From Candidatus Hydrogenedentota bacterium (GTDB lineage Bacteria; Hydrogenedentota; Hydrogenedentia; Hydrogenedentales; SLHB01), in assembly GCA_045863295.1 (NCBI GenBank), contig BTWA01000026.1, forward strand, positions 1 to 64,000: a DNA stretch of 64,000 bases, given 5' to 3'. Made by a program: the position numbers. Shown piece after piece: positions 12,701 to 33,700 of the stretch; within the stretch, counting starts at the first letter, position 1, and each line of letters opens with the position of its first letter.

Positions 12701-15700
12701 CTTTATGGCGTATTGATGCCCCCTGAGTGTCTGTAGCAATACCCCCGTGTCTCTATCCCAGAGTATGATGTTGTTGTCGGCTGCGCCAGAGGCGATACGT
12801 CGCCCATCTGGCGAGAATGCGGCCGGGCTTGATCCTTGGTTACCGCAAACGGTCCTTAGCTCAATCTTGTTCTGAACGTCCCATAGGTGGACGTAATTGT
12901 AGTCACCCGAGACGATGTAGTTGCCATCCGGTGAAAACGCCACGTGCGTGACGAGCCATTCGTTCGCTTGCAGTGTATAGATTCTGGCTCCCGAGCGTAC
13001 ATCCCACACCTGGATAGAGCCATCGAATAAGCCGACGGCTATGCACTTTCCATCAGGCGAAAAGGCCACGTCGGTATACTTGTTCGGCCCGCGAAACACG
13101 CGAAGTTCGTTTTTCGAGTCGACGTCCCACAGGCGGACCGTATTGTCATACGATGCAGAGGCTACGCATTGTCCATTCGGAGAAAACGCGACGCTGGTCA
13201 CAAAGTCCTCATGGCCGCGCAGAACGCCCGTTTGCATACCAGTTCGTATGTCCCAAATCCGTACAGTCTTATCGCCACAGGAAACGATCCGATCACCTTC
13301 CGGAGAGAAACTAACCTGATTAACTTGACTTTCGTGGCCGCGGAGCGCGAGTACCTCCCTCTCCGTTCGCAAGTCATATAGTAGTACTGTTTTGTCTTCA
13401 GATGCGGTCAGGATGCGGAGAGCGTCTGGCGAATACACGAAGGGGCCACACCCGTGTTCAGACCGCACGGTCCTTAGGTTGATTCCCGTCTCAGAATCCC
13501 ACGCTTGCCATGCCGAATTATTTGCCGTAATAATCCGAAATCCGTCGGGTGAGAACTCAAGCTTCTCTGCCGAACTGCTTGGTAGTTTAGTCAGGGTCTC
13601 ACCGCTGGCGATGTCCGTAACTAAGGCCCCATCTCTAGAACAGGATACGACTCGCTGTCCGTTAGGGGAGAAAGCGACGTTTGCAACGGGAGATTCGTGG
13701 GCTTTTACGACGCGAGTTAGCGTTCCCGTCTGTGCATTCCACAGGCACATTGTGTTGTCTCTAGAACCAGAGGCCACGCAGTCGCCTTCCGATGAAAATG
13801 CGATGCTTTTTATGTCAGATCGGTGTTCATTAAGCTCGTCCATTGTGTATAAGACTTGTGTGTCCCACAATATAACAACGCCGTTAGAAGACCCTGAAGC
13901 GATTTGCTTCCCATCAGGGGAAAATGCAGCAGTTTCGACATAATCTGTGTGGCCGCAGAGCAAACCCAACTCGGTGCCAGTATCGGAATCCCAAAGCCGA
14001 AGCGCTTTCATACTACCGGAGGTAGAGGCGCCCCGGTGCGAGCCGAGCGCCAAGGCTAATGGGAGATCCGTCTTAGGAAATCTGAACAACTCTATGTCGG
14101 TGTCGGCGCCTAGATCCCAAAACCGCACAGTACCATCGCCCAGCACGAATACGATACGGAGCGCGTCCGATGTGAACTCCAGTGATATATCTTTCGCGAT
14201 ATCGCCGAAATCTGAGCACGACCTCCCCAAGATGAGTGACCGTTCCCCGTTCCGTGAATCCCACAGCTTTATTTCAGAGCCTCCCATCGACGCGACACTA
14301 TTGCCATAAGGAGAAAACGCCACGCGCTTCACTTCTCCGTTATGATGGTGCAAGACTCGCATCTCTGACCCTGATTCCGCACCCAAGATATGCACTGTGC
14401 CCTCGTCTGTGCCGAATACGACTCGCCCCCCATCGGGTGAGAAGGTTACATTCGACGATGCGAATATGTGTTGCTTAGTAAACAAGGGGATCCCCCCAGC
14501 GACATCCCACACATTCACGGTGCCAAATGTCGAGCGTGAAACGATGCGCCTGCCATCAGGTGAAAATGAGATGCTTTCAAACTCCTCTTCTTCACGACTA
14601 CGCAACACATTCAACTCGGCACACGTGACCGCATCCCAAATGCGAATTGTCATATCTGTAGAGCCGGAGGCTAGCAGTCGTCCGTCCGCTGAATACGCCA
14701 CGCTCAAAACTCTAGACAGCGATTCGTGACCGCACAATATGCCCCTAAGGGAAGAGCCCAAATGCAGTTTCTGTGGCCGCAAAGTGCGAAGCCAATAGAA
14801 TTTCGGAGTCAAATCCTCCTTTCTGCGGTGCCACAATTCCATAAGTGCATGCAACTTCTGGCCGGAGTGGTTCCAGTGGCGTTGTTCTGTGTCCGGATTC
14901 TTCTCCGGTACGTTGTAGTGATTCTCCGCCTCGGGGCAGTCATACCACCAACAGAGGTTCCACATGCATTGGAAAAGCGTGGTGGGGTGGCAGTCGATGA
15001 AGCGGATGTCGCGGCGTATGGCTTCTTCGAACAGTTCAAGCGTGCGGCGCTTGGGGTGATCGCGCGGGATCGTAGCGAGGGCGTCGCGAAAATCGCGCGC
15101 GAGATCAAAGATCATGTATTGGCTCCAACGCTCGCCGACGGTGGTTCATCCGAACTAAGTTCGACAAAGTTCGGATCCGCTTCCGCTTTGGCCTCAAGGA
15201 ACTGCCAATCCAAGAGCAGTTCCGCTACTGCATCCCAATAAGGCGAGTTTGCGTCGTCTTTGCCGCCAATCTTCGCTGCCTCGAGTCGGTGGTACGGAAG
15301 TTCGACCACTTTTCGGACGTTGGCCGGGCGCGGGGTAGGCGGGAGACGTTTCGCCCGGGCGCGTTGGGCATCAAGGGATTCCGCCCAGAAGTCGAGTCCA
15401 GCAAAGTAATCCCCAAGCCGTACATGGGCTGCCAGCAAGGCGGCCTCGTCGGAACCAAAGTAGCGCGCCGCGACGGCTTCGCCCACTTGGCGATGATAGA
15501 AGTTCATGACGACCGTTCCGTCCGCGCGCCGCTGCACCATGTACGGCCGCAGATCGGCGAAAAGCCGTGACCAGATCACAACCGGCAGTTGCTTGATGCG
15601 GTTTTCAGGCTTCTTCTCGCGTTCCGTCGGGGATTGATCACAAAACCAATTCATTACAGAATCATCTTGAGAAAGGATCTCCACCAGTTCGTCTTCCGTC

Positions 15701-30700: not shown

Positions 30701-33700
30701 ACCGCCGATGGTGAACCGTTAATAATCCACGAATCAGGTCATTCCGGCACCAATTGGAATATATCCCATGCGCCCAAGCTCGCCGCTCGGCTCGACGATG
30801 CTAGTTTCGCCCCTGACGGCTCCATCACCGCACTCCATCGCGAACCGGGTGTAAGCCAGGTGTGGCGTCATTCTCCAGTCGGCAACAACGGGTCTACTCC
30901 CGGCCGAACCCCTGAAACAGCCATTGCATTCAGAAGCCGGAGATTGTGGTCTGGACATGTGGCTCGTCTCTCACAACCTCAATGGCTTAAAATCGTGAAA
31001 GTTTCCCGATCAGGAAACGCATTTGCGATGTATTCCAATGCTGGGTTAATAAGTTGGGGGCGATTCCGGCTTTGGGGTATACGGCCGCATTGGGAAAAGT
31101 GGCCCAATCCAATCGACGAGTTCGCCATATCCGATAGAGGAACCGTAATCGTCTTGACACAGCAAACGGGCACGGCTATAGATAAACCACCAGCCCGGCT
31201 TCTTTTGTGCAAGGGTTTCAAGCACACATTGCTGAAAGATGGCTGGGGCGGGGGAACGCGTGGGATAGAGCGCGGAATGGCCAAACAGCTTCGGGGAATA
31301 TCAATTAGCTGTGACGGACGAATTATCACGGCCATTGACCTCGCGCATAACCTGTGGGTATTCAATTTTGAACCCGACAGACCCGATGATCCTCCAAGTG
31401 GGGATATTGTGCTTTCAAACGTTGTAGCCTGCGAAACGTCGTCGTCAGGCGTCTTTTTCGCTGCATTGCACCTTGACATGACGATCCAAGTACTCTCGCG
31501 CGAAATGAAGGCCTGTCCCCAGAATCTCGGAAAACTCCTGCTGCCTGGCCAGGCTAACCATTTTCGCATCGATGAAACAGCGCGCTGTCTGATTGTCTCA
31601 GGACACAATTATGTTCAGTCGGTGAGATTCTAGCCAGTGAGAACGAAAAGGTACTGAAATGAACACTGCCAAGGACTACTTCGTGGGCGCAACTAGCGTC
31701 GTCAGTATGTGTTTACTTGTAAGTTCATTCGTGCTCATGTATCGCAACTTCTTTACTGAATCGCACTATTCGTGGTGGCTCATCGGCGGCCTCGCTTTAC
31801 AGTTTCCAGTGATGGCAAAGATAATGGCGAAGCTCTTTCGCGGATCCGTCCGGCCGTCTGATGAAGTTATCAATCATGCTTTCGATCGCGTCTACGAACA
31901 GAGACTTCGTTCGGTTGTATTCAAATTTCCCGAAGGCTGGCGCTACAAGAAGCAAGGACGCGGCGTGCACAGTTTCTACATGCAAGAATGTGGCCACGCG
32001 GCAGTAATACACGTCGAGCTTACATATCTCTTCGAAACCGAGATTGACTCGCTGGAGGGGTACTTGGCGTACGCAACGGAATTTGTGCGTGGGCTAAACG
32101 CCGAACTTATGTTTAACCGTGTCGCAGATCGATGGGGAATGCGTATTCACGAGTTTGCGTACAAGTCACCGCGTAGTTGCGGGCAACGGCTGACTGTGCC
32201 CTATCATGGCACTGAATATGGGTTCTTTTTGCGGACCGATGTCGCGGACCTGGCGCAGCCTGCAGGTAAGCTCTTCGATCACTTCTTGAGCCACGTGCGA
32301 TTTGATCCCCCACCACTAAAACCGCAACTGGCATTTGGTGGACAATTGTCAGTTGCACTTCCAGCGGAATTCATGCCCGTCCAGACCCAAAAAACGGACA
32401 CCGCAACTTGGAAAAGCACGACTCGAAAAGACTGTAGCATCTGGTTGCAGTACCGTCACGAATGTGAAGCACCAATGCGCCCTGAACTACTTCGCCCGCT
32501 GCTGAAAAGCTGCCCCCGTCCCGAACAGGGCGCGAACGACTTCGTCCGGGGACTAAAAAAGGGTCAAATCAGACTATCTGAAAATGGATTTGGGGGATAC
32601 ATCTATTATCAAGCCACGGATAGGTGGGGTTGGTTAGCGGCGGTGGGAGACCTACCGTCGGGCGGGCGTGTTCTGTTCTGCCTTGACGACAAAGACCCTG
32701 AACAGGCTCCATATTATGGGACATACTTTTATGAGCAAATCTCAATTGAAATTCTAGTTACCTTGTCGGAACGGCTGTAGTGGCGCAAGGCGACACAATA
32801 ATGATGAAATATGACATATGACCGATTCTACAAGATTGAAAGAGACGAGGTAAGGCTGACAGGAGCATGACTGGAAGAAGATGACCTATACTTCGAAAAT
32901 ACGCGGGGGGTGGGAACCCGTTCGAGCTTTTTGGCGCGTTTGGGGGTGGCCTATTATCTGGGCGCTTGGGGTGGCGTCGTTTGTGTGCGGATATGTGGGG
33001 TTCGCGCAATATTACCAGTCACAGGCCGAAGTCCATTCGGTGTTGGAACTGGTGTACCGCACGCTCCAGCTCTACGTCCTCCAATCCGGAGCGTTGGACT
33101 ATCCGGTCCCGCCTGCGCTTGAGGTCGCGCGGTTTCTTGCGCCCGCCGTGTTCGGTTACACGGCAACCCGCGCGCTGACATCGCTGCTGCGCGAACAGTT
33201 TCTCACGTTATGGCTATGGCGGCGGCGGGAGCACGTCGTTGTGTGCGGACTTGGGCGCAAGGGCCTCCAAATCGCAAAAGACTTCAGCAACCGGTACTCC
33301 GTCGTTGTTATCGAGCCCGATGCGCACAACGACCGCATCCGTCACTGCCGCGACTTTGGCGCGCGCGTCCTCATCGGCGACGCATCGGACATCGACCTGC
33401 TACGGCAGGCGGGCGTGGCGCGCGCGCGTTACGTCGTCGCCACGACGGGCGACGACGGGGTAAATGTGGAAATCGTGCTCCACGCCCGCGAACTGGTGCA
33501 ATCGCGCCCCGCGATGTTCTCGCATACCTGCACGTGCCTGGTTCACATTGTCGACTCCACATTGTGTGCGGTCTTCAAAATGGCGCCGACTTTTACCTCA
33601 GGCAAGGATTGGTTCGAGGCAACGGTTTTCAACATATACGAAAACTGCGCAAGGCAACTGTTCGAAGTGCAACCGCTGGACCGCGTGCCCATCGGCGTTT

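Follow-up and report, generated by a model that had tools for sequence, protein, structure and literature searches.

The closest described systems are those of pupylation. In the Pup-proteasome system of actinobacteria (Mpa/ARC, Dop, Pup, PrcBA and PafA), the paralogues Dop and PafA are encoded in the order Dop, tag, ligase, with a small tag ending in Gly-Gln between the two enzymes. The locus examined here, from a sludge bacterium (Candidatus Hydrogenedentota), shares this arrangement but has neither Mpa/ARC nor a 20S proteasome, carries active-site substitutions in both enzymes, includes an 894-aa TPR arm coupled to the ligase, and is accompanied by a sigma-54 activator instead of a PafBC-type regulator. 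Tagging that is uncoupled from the proteasome reportedly also occurs in Corynebacterium glutamicum (Pup, PafA, Dop and ARC), with ferritin as a target, but ARC is kept there, whereas the present system has a dedicated arm protein and lacks an ARC-like OB domain. Dop-tag-PafA loci from outside the actinobacteria, the 'UBact' type, resemble this one. Of 20 other loci examined, 13 have a tag of approximately 62–75 aa ending in GGQ, GGE, SGQ or SAQ between the genes for the two enzymes, and the Dop-like enzyme and ligase described here group with theirs in a tree. Those loci encode an Mpa-like ATPase, often with ThiF and JAB, while here all of these are missing and the arm is found instead. The comparison suggests that the system is a variant of pupylation in which the ligase is tied to a repeat arm rather than to a protein-degrading machine.

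The features found in the window, which is the whole 64,000 nt stretch of DNA analysed, are listed in Table 1. All of the genes named in the initial annotation were recovered in the same positions. It had placed the cassette between two DUF4062-STAND genes, and both are present, but they do not flank it directly, as the exported protein and the activator intervene. It mentioned neither of these two. No partner of the cassette is more highly conserved than the activator. Stop and start codons overlap at 23660/23657 (Dop-type gene and tag) and at 21738/21735 (ligase and arm), which fits a single operon.

Table 1. Features of the Pup-type locus and its surroundings
Feature	Position	Strand	Basis
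Sigma-54-dependent activator (bEBP)	25453..27108	+	Pfam, PADLOC, NCBIfam, relatives
Sigma-54 -24/-12 promoter-like element, TGGCATGGTCATTGC(T)	25288..25302	-	Motif scan, sister operons
Dop-type Pup-ligase-family enzyme	23657..25273 (longest ORF to 25420)	-	Pfam, NCBIfam, PDB, tree
68-aa Pup-like tag, C-terminus QQSGQ	23454..23660	-	Position between Dop-type and PafA-type genes, relative P0180, hhalign
Highly divergent PafA-type ligase	21735..23423	-	Pfam, PDB, own profile, tree
894-aa TPR-type arm, C-terminus ...WEDWRRPSFSPELSYWGL	19054..21738	-	Homologue search, hhalign, model
336-aa exported protein of no known family	17721..18731	-	Signal-peptide-like N-terminus; neighbour, membership only candidate
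DUF4062-STAND NTPase, 841 aa	15112..17637	-	Domain scan; neighbouring NLR-like module, membership only candidate
WD40 proteins, after the 841-aa STAND gene	11825-15115 and 7491-11645		Domain scan
DUF4062-STAND-WD40 protein, 1436 aa	27323..31633	+	Domain scan; neighbour downstream of activator, membership only candidate

The Dop-type enzyme scored 191.8 bits against Pfam Pup_ligase, reproducing the 192 bits reported initially, 164 bits against the NCBIfam model for Dop as against 108 bits for that of PafA, and matched Dop in the PDB with an E value of 1.5e-30. Its likely start at 25273 corresponds to M50 of the longest ORF and matches the starts of its relatives, giving a protein of 538 aa. The motifs DxE, YSELGHLE and INTRDE are present, the second with Glu in the column of the catalytic Asp, and this column is acidic in 14 of 15 Dop-type proteins. 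The enzyme is predicted to deamidate the C-terminal Gln of the tag and possibly has an additional, de-tagging role.

For the PafA-type ligase, the 57 bits given in the initial annotation for Pup_ligase were obtained again from six-frame DNA (57.8 bits) but not from the ORF protein, which scored 73.6 bits; the E values to Dop and PafA chains in the PDB (9.1e-7 to 2.6e-5) were as it had stated. The ORF is 562 aa long (551 aa in the database gene call), and its profile matches non-actinobacterial PafA genes with E values of 5e-30 to about 1e-15. A tree of 40 Pup-ligase-family proteins is divided by one main split (SH-aLRT 100). The Dop side (21 rows) contains every first gene of a pair, the Dops of actinobacteria and the clade of this Dop-like enzyme, and the PafA side (19 rows) every second gene, the six fusions, the clade of this ligase, and the ligases of a sister system in genomes G105 and G107. 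By sequence comparison, both enzymes are members of the Dop/PafA family. The long branches of this ligase point to very fast divergence. The ligase keeps E21, E23, E80, H140, R215, R468 and R472, which are invariant in 11 ligases, including both divergent clades, and the catalytic-Asp column is acidic in all 11. Other canonical residues are altered, with HPE changed to LLE, HESY to HFNI and TRDE to TKEI (the His, the Glu and most of TRDE are gone), and Glu replaces Asp in the catalytic column of both enzymes. Residues of this altered set bind metal or ATP in the structures of PafA and Dop. Having lost them, the ligase could be inactive or use other chemistry.

The tag has a relative (P0180) of the same length and 68 % identity that also ends in QQSGQ, and the C-terminal 44 residues are the best kept. 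Alignment with the small ORFs of other Dop-PafA loci using hhalign gave P 2.6e-4 and a probability of 42 %, with the C-termini in register. In a search of 1250 ORFs of the window with an HMM of 12 small ORFs the tag came only seventh, with a non-significant E value of 2, and comparison with Pfam and PDB produced no match. The sequence likeness to other tags is weak.

The bacterium's own genome (G000), which is 96 % complete, contains only the two Pup_ligase genes of this cassette, and such genes are found in 5 of the 134 other genomes of the phylum, correcting an earlier count of 4. The earlier claim that there is no 20S proteasome and no Mpa/ARC held up. The one Proteasome-family match in this genome is, at 183 aa, the size of HslV, and none of 42 candidates has the Mpa/ARC OB domain, while the control, C. 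glutamicum, was positive. A proteasome or Mpa was likewise not found in G105, G095 and G104, and none of 82 ORFs around 12 metagenome Pup loci matched Proteasome.

Searching 1.84 billion representatives identified 34 homologues of the arm, including six full-length and three truncated fusions to a Pup ligase. Further fusions occur at locus L027 and, of a second kind, in genus g17, so that a fusion reported in the initial annotation is borne out by several cases. Residues ~610–894 of the arm, i.e. the last ~290, which usually close with [FY]WG[LVIM], correspond to an extension at the C-terminus of PafA ligases that look canonical in other respects (hhalign 99.7 %, E 1.3e-25). At L027 the gene order is Dop-tag(..QQGGQ)-PafA-TPR and the ligase has an arm-like extension. 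Residues ~150–457, in the N-half of the arm, match residues ~585–904 of the G105 ligase protein (hhalign 97.7 %, E 2.2e-12). The proposed homology to TIR-STAND proteins was also confirmed, residues ~140–894 matching the C-terminal repeat tails of P0017, P0018, P0019 and P0023 (E 5e-39 to 1.5e-13), and among the 30 homologues scanned four are TIR-STAND, one TIR-only and one a Ser/Thr-kinase protein. The two independent gene fusions indicate that ligase and arm function as a unit. The arm, which in its entirety forms the tail of these other proteins, is a module common to swapped effectors. Unlike the NLR-like STAND defence proteins (Avs, bNACHT; TIR-STAND), the 894-aa arm has no NTPase or effector domain of its own, and its effector would be the separate Pup ligase. 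The Atlas model of the arm resembles the TPR arms of MalT/LuxR-type STAND regulators, with a TM below 0.5.

The activator consists of an N-terminal region of ~160 aa, which belongs to no known family and for which no relative was found in the PDB, followed by an AAA+ domain with the loop GAFTDG, and its C-terminal part matches RtcR/PspF-type AAA+HTH models. It scored 182 bits against Pfam Sigma54_activat and 273 bits against PADLOC RtcR_PspF2 (AAA+HTH only), and NCBIfam concurs. Like the RtcR-type activators that are its best match, it is transcribed divergently from an operon with a -24/-12 promoter, but the sensor domain at its N-terminus is not CARF. Aligned from ORF residue M55, it shares 38 % identity with the G105 activator over 522 aa, the full length, and it is 55 % identical to that in G095 (C110). 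The promoter element ends 14 nt before the proposed ATG of the Dop-like gene, leaving almost no leader, and the motif with at most one mismatch occurs only seven times in the whole window (both strands, 128 kb). On the operon strand, such elements are found in three of the four intergenic regions beside this activator family (637 nt in total), where about 0.035 would be expected by chance from 7 per 128 kb. Those ahead of the sister operons have no mismatch in G105 (TGGCAC-N5-TTGCT, 88 nt before the tag gene) and one in G085, and rpoN is present in the cassette's own genome. Counting against this are the near-absence of a leader in the window and the G105 activator, which has the loop DSSDRA instead of GAFTGA despite its perfect promoter. 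Overall, by sequence comparison, a conserved activator and promoter accompany the cassette across genera.

The sister system belongs to genus g17 and is found in G105 (99 % complete) and also in G107 and G104. In G105, a 66-aa tag ending in RRYSGGE (hhalign to the tag family, P 9.7e-5) is followed by a 904-aa protein whose residues 1–494 are PafA-like (hhalign 99.5 %, E 7e-23), and the last gene encodes a 470-aa TPR protein ending in DYWGL, the separately encoded C-half of the arm. No Dop-type gene was detected in this genome by Pfam or, among 28 candidates, by our own profile. A tag born with Glu where there is no deamidase and one born with Gln where there is one is what Pup chemistry predicts. 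Within the phylum the arm is sporadic (5 of 135 genomes); in G095, activator and arm lie at contig edges and no ligase was found. Homologues of the Dop-like enzyme, ligase and arm are on equal-sized contigs from the same source (9697: P0049, P0004 and P0013; 4009: P0047 and P0003; 6217: P0005 and P0166), which suggests that the cassette recurs elsewhere, the synteny of these closest relatives being read from equal contig sizes only. The 336-aa exported protein, which matches nothing in Pfam, NCBIfam or PADLOC and is separated from the arm gene by 323 bp, shares 53 % identity with a protein of 315 aa following the activator in G095. A STAND protein 60 % identical to the 841-aa one lies beside a related activator in G085.

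We favour, with a probability of about 0.55, a sigma-54-inducible, self-contained conjugation module of the Pup type that works without Mpa/ARC or a proteasome. Some signal would act on the novel N-domain of the activator, which would then open the sigma-54 promoter before the operon. The Dop-type enzyme would convert the C-terminal Gln of the tag to Glu, and the PafA-type ligase would activate this Glu with ATP and join it to a lysine of the target. The arm, physically built into the ligase machine, would select or gate the target in the manner of an E3 substrate receptor, and the tag would directly alter the activity or fate of the target rather than feed a proteasome. The parts of this explanation that we infer are catalysis, conjugation, the selection of targets by the arm, and what triggers the system biologically. 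If correct, it suggests that ubiquitin-like tags can be aimed at chosen targets in a way not described before.

Which targets are meant divides two further readings. The boldest reading in the initial annotation was immunity, by the mechanism just proposed, with the arm an NLR-type sensor of an invader protein, the ligase pupylating the invader, and the STAND genes in the same defence island or system. We regard this as tentative; an immune role is plausible, and the case is circumstantial. That TIR-STAND, TIR-only and kinase proteins share the arm amounts to effector swapping on one sensor, as is typical in conflict systems. Models of defence TIRs match the TIR domains, the NTPases weakly match Avs1b, and the sporadic occurrence is in keeping. 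Two DUF4062-STAND genes surround the cassette, and 2026 preprints report that DUF4062 is a TIR-like NADase in anti-phage systems. In G095 there is again an NLR-like neighbour, a TIR-NB-ARC-WD40 protein at the matching place two genes after the activator. A DUF4062-AAA_16-TPR protein is convergent to a PafA gene at metagenome locus L060, and in G085 other variable cassettes next to STAND genes are under related activators. However, STAND neighbours are absent from the sister system of G105/G107, and G000, G095 and G085 are one family in which common neighbours may be inherited synteny. PADLOC has no match for the ligase, arm or tag, no relatives were found on viral contigs, and no mobile-element genes were seen, the flanks of the window being ordinary chromosomal genes. 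Were the immune reading to hold, the system would, like Bil/Bub and CBASS Cap2, conjugate a small tag in a conflict system, but by unrelated chemistry, with a ligase of glutamine-synthetase fold that acts on a C-terminal Glu, and no E1, E2 or JAB in the cassette. A slightly less likely reading is that the cell tags proteins of its own under stress, for regulation or quality control. This would be similar to the proteasome-less pupylation of Corynebacterium, with the arm as adaptor for a few host substrates and other AAA+ machines or altered activity as the outcome. Activators of the RtcR/PspF type, which are the best PADLOC and NCBIfam matches here, typically run stress-repair operons, Pup loci without a proteasome are common outside the Actinobacteria (the 12 metagenome loci above), and the cassette lies in ordinary chromosomal DNA that is near-identical in sludge metagenomes from several studies. 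Those loci, however, keep an Mpa-like ATPase (6 of 12, and G078) that is missing here, and conflict, more than housekeeping, would account for the very fast divergence of the ligase and for the arm being akin to TIR-STAND and kinase proteins.

The reading of the PafA-like protein as a pseudo-enzyme, with nothing being conjugated, is unlikely. Together with the arm it would form a receptor for the small protein, and the sole catalyst would be the Dop-type enzyme (of a Gln/Glu switch, for example). The canonical residues lost from the ligase and its low Pfam score (73.6 bits) would agree with this, as would the G105 homologue, which gets no Pfam match. But the ligase-like domain of G105 is the only family member there and its tag ends in an activation-ready Glu, sensible only if ligated, and both divergent clades keep E21, E23, E80, H140 and R215 unchanged throughout. 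It is most improbable that the four genes are a chance neighbourhood, left over from a canonical Pup locus in decay and without current function, as the rarity of the system and the drift of its active-site residues might imply. No frameshifted copies were seen in near-identical strains in four runs, and against decay the four ORFs are intact with coupled stop and start codons, homologues at 41–68 % identity keep their full length, the 44 C-terminal residues of the tag are conserved, and activator, promoter and operon are conserved across genera.

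The genes named in the initial annotation, among them a Dop-type enzyme, a 68-aa protein, a PafA-type ligase and an 894-aa protein, were all found by ORF listing and Pfam, the four cassette genes as an array on the minus strand, and that observation is confirmed. In the cassette, the stop codon of one gene overlaps the start codon of the next at 23660/23657 and again at 21738/21735 (ORF listing). A sigma-54 activator that lies divergently beside it had gone unmentioned. The best-supported reading is that the cassette encodes an inducible Pup-type conjugation module, independent of Mpa and of the proteasome, in which the ligase forms one unit with a receptor-like arm.

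The start of the Dop-like gene used in the database (M74) was rejected, as it would cut off the conserved first strand, ILLGADTEISHF. The relatives of this protein begin at M50 of the long ORF, with ILLGADTEISHF next, and 25273 was therefore taken as the start. For the activator, the alignment with its homologue in genome G105 (genus g17) begins at M55 (MEVAVLEC versus MEYAVLEC), placing its start at 25453, and hence the divergent intergenic region is 179 bp. No inverted repeats of at least 10 nt were found in this region, scans for terminators and sigma-70 promoters gave only background levels, and no match to an Rfam family was obtained within 7000-38000 of the window. Among the sequencing runs listed with this DNA, none was of RNA. 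The outer parts of the window are filled by ordinary chromosomal genes. The genome is 96 % complete and the two cassette enzymes are its only Pup_ligase genes; a Pup_ligase match is present in six of the 135 genomes of the phylum, this one included.

Features of the cassette and its surroundings (contig positions), and components of the sister locus in G105
Locus	Feature	Position	Strand	Basis or remark
Window	Two large WD40 proteins (1096, 1384 aa)	11825-15115 and 7491-11645	-	
Window	DUF4062-STAND NTPase (841 aa)	15112-17637	-	
Window	336-aa protein	17721-18731	-	323-bp gap separates it from the arm gene
Window	894-aa protein (arm)	19054-21738	-	weak TPR_7 match only (Pfam)
Window	PafA-like enzyme	21735-23423	-	Pup_ligase 73.6 bits
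Window	68-aa protein ending QQSGQ	23454-23660	-	ORF listing
Window	Dop-like enzyme ORF	23657-25420	-	Pfam Pup_ligase 191.8 bits
Window	Promoter-like -24/-12 element TGGCATGGTCATTGC	25302-25288	-	before cassette operon
Window	Sigma-54 activator	ORF from 25291, start placed at 25453	+	Pfam, homologue alignment
Window	DUF4062-STAND-WD40 protein (1436 aa)	27323-31633	+	beyond activator
Window	373-aa protein, then TrkA_N-RyR and AAA-RyR proteins		+	beyond the 27323-31633 gene
G105	Activator			38 % identity across 522 aa, the N-domain being part of the match
G105	Divergent region			perfect TGGCACagcgaTTGCT sigma-54 element
G105	66-aa ORF			good Shine-Dalgarno, ends RRYSGGE; hhalign to tag family P 9.7e-5
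G105	904-aa protein			no Pfam match
G105	470-aa TPR protein ending DYWGL			arm columns 473-889

Both enzymes pass the 25-bit cut-off of Pup_ligase (PF03136). With the NCBIfam equivalogs they score 164 and 37 bits, below the cut-offs of 492 and 551, and thus do not qualify as orthologues under the NCBI standard. Forty family members were placed in a tree (IQ-TREE quick search, LG+G4; actinobacterial PafA absent), which splits with an SH-aLRT of 100 into 21 Dop-type and 19 PafA-type rows. On the Dop side lie the first gene of every Dop-PafA pair, the Dops of actinobacteria and myxococci, and the clade of the Dop-like enzyme from the window, and on the PafA side all second genes, six fusions of PafA with the C-domain of the arm (PafA-TPR), the clade of the window ligase, and the ligases of G105 and G107, a second genome of genus g17. 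The two divergent ligase clades join at an SH-aLRT of 92, with a long-branch warning.

The canonical catalytic Asp of Dop and PafA, which we take to reside in the YxD..HPE motif, is absent from both window enzymes (YSE and YAE), and it is possible that both are inactive. Further substitutions are HYNY where HENY stands canonically in the Dop-like enzyme and, in the ligase, LLE for HPE, HFNI for HESY and TKEI for TRDE. In the Dop-like enzyme (YSELGHLE) a Glu occupies the catalytic column, as it does in its relatives P0047-P0049, Asp being found in P0050, P0051 and all others, and the column is acidic in 14 of the 15 Dop-type rows with one row ambiguous. The first strand carries DxE, as in other non-actinobacterial Dop types, and INTRDE is intact. 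The ligase retains GDERE and also has a Glu at the catalytic column, which is acidic in all 11 ligases (Asp in the G105 ligase), and residues E21, E23, E80, H140, R215, R468 and R472, presumably the metal and ATP ligands going by the glutamine-synthetase fold and the PafA/Dop structures, are invariant in the same 11, both divergent clades among them. In G105 the tag ends in Glu and no Dop-type gene was found by Pfam or with a Dop profile, which argues that the divergent ligase is the working enzyme; a Glu-ended tag without a deamidase versus a Gln-ended tag with one is as Pup chemistry predicts. In our reading, both window enzymes are altered yet probably still active.

The putative tag ends in Ser-Gly-Gln and is encoded at the canonical place between the two enzyme genes. 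Its relative P0180 is of the same length, 68 % identical and has the same QQSGQ end, the first 24 residues having diverged and the last 44 being well kept. In 13 of the 20 other loci examined, a small ORF with a GGQ, GGE, SGQ or SAQ end separates the Dop-type gene from the PafA-type gene. The tag has no Pfam Pup match at E up to 10 and likewise nothing in the PDB, and a plain HMM built from 12 small tag ORFs did not single it out among 1250 window ORFs (rank 7, E = 2). With hhalign, it matches the small-ORF family at P 2.6e-4 and a probability of 42 %, C-termini in register, and BLASTP of the G105 tag against it aligned the first 8 residues only (E 0.085). The assignment thus rests on position, C-terminal residue, conservation and weak similarity.

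No STAND NTPase domain was found in the 894-aa protein by Pfam, and PADLOC gave no match; its C-terminal part is nevertheless a repeat arm with homology to the arms of STAND proteins. An exhaustive HMMER search over 1.84 billion representatives yielded 34 arm homologues (P0012-P0045), 16 at E up to 1e-10 and seven at E up to 1e-30, and 30 were scanned with Pfam, the four shortest fragments being left out. Half of these (15/30) lack an enzymatic domain, including P0012-P0015, which match most of the arm's length, two of them being shorter proteins than the arm itself. Four (P0017, P0018, P0019 and P0023) have a TIR-STAND architecture with tails matching arm residues 138-894, one combines a TIR domain with the arm and one a Ser/Thr kinase, and nine contain Pup_ligase, namely six full-length PafA-type proteins with a C-terminal extension of ~290 residues and three fragments cut at the 5' end. 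This extension corresponds to residues 610-894 of the arm (hhalign 99.7 %, E 1.3e-25) with the ends in register, and the fusion ligases carry the canonical motifs GxETEY, DxxHPE, HESY and TRDEP. At L027, the one fusion locus with context, the order is a Dop C-terminus, a 64-aa tag (..KQQGGQ) and PafA-TPR; a metagenome scan with the fusion ligases, from which 80 loci were kept, revealed the arm domain in L027 only, the contig of the homologue P0031 not being among them. In 23 of the 34 homologues the chain terminates in [FY]WG[LVIM] after a W..W motif, and this end is conserved in TPR proteins that stand alone, in the tails of TIR-STAND proteins and in fusions with PafA, which suggests that this free end may dock into a pocket of a partner. 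An Atlas model of the arm is of low confidence (pTM 0.38), its likeness to TPR arms reaching only TM values below 0.5. The arm profile gave a single locus in a scan of genome contigs, and in viral contigs neither the arm nor the ligase was matched.

Arm profile matches are present in 5 of the 135 phylum genomes. One of them is G105 (99 % complete), which has a sister system also found in G107 and G104, likewise of genus g17. Residues 1-494 of its 904-aa protein are PafA-like (hhalign 99.5 %, E 7e-23) and include the HFNI of the window's ligase, and residues ~585-904 match arm residues ~150-457 (hhalign 97.7 %, E 2.2e-12). Hence, ligase plus arm of the window correspond to the 904 plus 470 residues of G105, with the gene border shifted. 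Comparative genomics links a Pup ligase with a dedicated receptor-like arm threefold: by gene neighbourhood, through fusion to the N-half of the arm, and through the joining of canonical PafA with the C-domain; the same arm serves TIR-STAND and kinase proteins too. We know of no substrate receptor described for PafA, no search aimed at this point having been made. If the arm selects targets, this would be the first E3-like substrate-receptor logic for Pup, in a compact four-gene system testable in vitro.

Pupylation is known to direct proteins to the proteasome or, in Corynebacterium, to the unfoldase ARC. The absence of both a 20S proteasome and Mpa/ARC, as initially annotated, was borne out: the sole PF00227 match in the genome is a 183-aa frame of HslV size, and the Mpa OB domain (PF16450) has no match, while controls were detected. 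The same domain is missing from G105, G107, G104 and G095, the last another phylum genome with an arm homologue (0/4; controls detected), and in G105 the only Proteasome match is of HslV size. According to one source, pupylation is a pathway of Actinobacteria and Nitrospirae, ligase and depupylase co-occurring sporadically elsewhere (PMC7947786), and according to another the proteasome is largely confined to Actinobacteria (PMC8223512). In metagenomes, Dop-PafA loci outside Actinobacteria are common (80 loci kept). Around 12 long loci, none of 82 ORFs matched Proteasome, so that lack of a proteasome is not special to the cassette, and an Mpa-like AAA protein with an OB domain was present in 6 of the 12 and ThiF in four; in genome G078, genes for ThiF, JAB, Mpa-like protein, Dop and PafA follow in a row. 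What sets the cassette apart from such loci is that Mpa is absent as well, together with the presence of the arm and the activator. It also differs from the Ubl-conjugation defence systems (Bil/Bub, Cap2), which have E1, E2 and JAB genes, as no ThiF (E1), E2 or JAB gene was found among the window ORFs of 7491-37748, and from NLR-like STAND defence proteins (Avs/bNACHT), which have a similar repeat arm but carry the NTPase in the same protein.

The AAA+ domain of the activator matches Sigma54_activat at 182 bits. Such domains occur in every phylum genome, and matches that include the N-domain were obtained only in G095 (55 % identical), G105, G026 and G085, the G107 match being partial and cut at a contig edge. 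At the position of the GAFTGA loop, the window protein has GAFTDG, that of G095 has GAFTGA itself, those of G026 and G085 have GAFTNA, and that of G105 has DSSDRA, so that the G105 activator may not contact sigma-54, in contrast to the perfect TGGCAC-N5-TTGCT element in its divergent region. GG/GC-anchored -24/-12 elements with at most one mismatch lie on the operon strand in three of the four activator intergenic regions (637 nt in total), and seven such matches in 128 kb of window strand give an expectation of about 0.035 for those regions. The genome contains rpoN (contig C34). In G085, where the intergenic region has a sigma-54-like element with one mismatch, and in G026 the activators face operons starting with AAA_2-type ATPases and unknown proteins, indicating that this activator family serves variable cassettes; these activators may control a group of related inducible cassettes whose contents have been exchanged. 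The conserved activator, with a sensor domain of unknown family, offers a handle on the inducing signal. The facing AAA_2 (Clp/Cdc48-type) ATPases are of 743 or 817 aa, and the stretches with activator and operon lie at 849-9334 of G085:C425 and 1486-8951 of G026:C186.

The initial annotation went further and proposed an immune system. Its Pup-type module free of Mpa and proteasome stands, as does the kinship of the arm to TIR-STAND tails, and the immune role is kept as a plausible but minority reading. According to it, an NLR-type arm wired to a Pup ligase in place of a TIR or kinase effector would, upon a signal sensed by the dedicated sigma-54 activator, have bound invader proteins marked covalently by a Pup-like tag and thereby disabled without an unfoldase or proteasome, which we regard as rather unlikely. 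The strongest case for a conflict role comes from the swapped effectors on the arm (TIR-STAND, TIR, kinase, Pup ligase) together with how sporadic, fast-evolving and prone to fusion the system is, a case made from pattern. Neighbouring genes bear on it in both directions. In G095 the activator, at a contig edge, is followed by a protein 53 % identical to the 336-aa one of the window and by a TIR-NB-ARC-APAF1_C-WD40 protein, and in G085 the related activator adjoins a STAND protein that shares 60 % identity with the window's 841-aa one. There is no STAND neighbour at the G105/G107 locus, and since the compared genomes are all kin, neighbours in common may be inherited. PADLOC has no models for ligase, arm or tag, and outside subscription journals and bioRxiv supplements no paper was found that connects pupylation with either defence or a receptor arm. 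Were the role defence, this would be a new chemistry in bacterial immunity: pupylation would join the protein-tagging branches of prokaryotic immunity as a third one, unrelated in its chemistry, and the repeat arm would be a sensor module common to TIR, kinase and ligase effectors.

The arm homologue of G095 lies at the edge of another contig (C98), followed by convergent WD40 genes, and no ligase was found in that assembly by Pfam or profile, which we read as a probable assembly gap. In both genomes the gene of the 336-aa protein, which belongs to no known family and whose homologue in G095 is at 5033-5980 of locus L138, immediately precedes an NLR-like gene, DUF4062-STAND in the window and TIR-NB-ARC-WD40 in G095. 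Both proteins have signal-peptide-like N-termini and are therefore unlikely to be cytosolic partners; an Atlas look-up of the window protein was uninformative.

Two DUF4062-STAND systems are present in the window, with the same order of domains as human TEP1/NWD1. One is split (7491-17637, minus strand) into the NTPase gene and the WD40 genes, with a 4-bp overlap at 15112-15115. A 2026 preprint that also discusses TEP1/NWD1 reports that DUF4062 is a TIR-like NADase, found both in an anti-phage system and in STAND proteins of the TEP1/NWD1 type (10.64898/2026.05.01.722283). A DUF4062-AAA_16-TPR STAND protein (1184 aa; 6282-9836, minus strand) is also convergent to the PafA gene of L060, an unrelated metagenome contig with a Pup locus of JAB, Mpa-like, Dop, tag and PafA genes. 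L060 belongs to a recurrent proteasome-less cassette, seen also in L049, L068, L080, L063 and L016/L017 (G078 and G077), that comprises a small unknown protein, ThiF (E1-like), unknowns, JAB in some, an Mpa-like AAA protein carrying an OB domain, a Dop type, a small ORF with a GGQ or GGE end and a PafA type. From this gene order, the E1/JAB ubiquitin-like set and the Pup set appear to have one operon and one unfoldase in common.

Beyond the second STAND gene, the window (32881-39693) encodes TrkA_N-RyR (586 aa), AAA-RyR (928 aa) and 626-aa proteins. The 626-aa protein, of no family, and the AAA-RyR protein are shared with the G105 locus (56 and 32 % identical; L110, 17043-20000), and near-full-length matches to the former occur in only four other genomes of 135. 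A contig of G107 (C504, 2803 bases) carries two Proteasome-family frames and a fragment of PafA that looks canonical (324.8 bits). Being a separate 2.8-kb contig of a different type, it was rejected as part of the system described here, and it may represent either a further Pup-proteasome locus, of the classical kind, or contamination, which is listed at 3 % for this genome.
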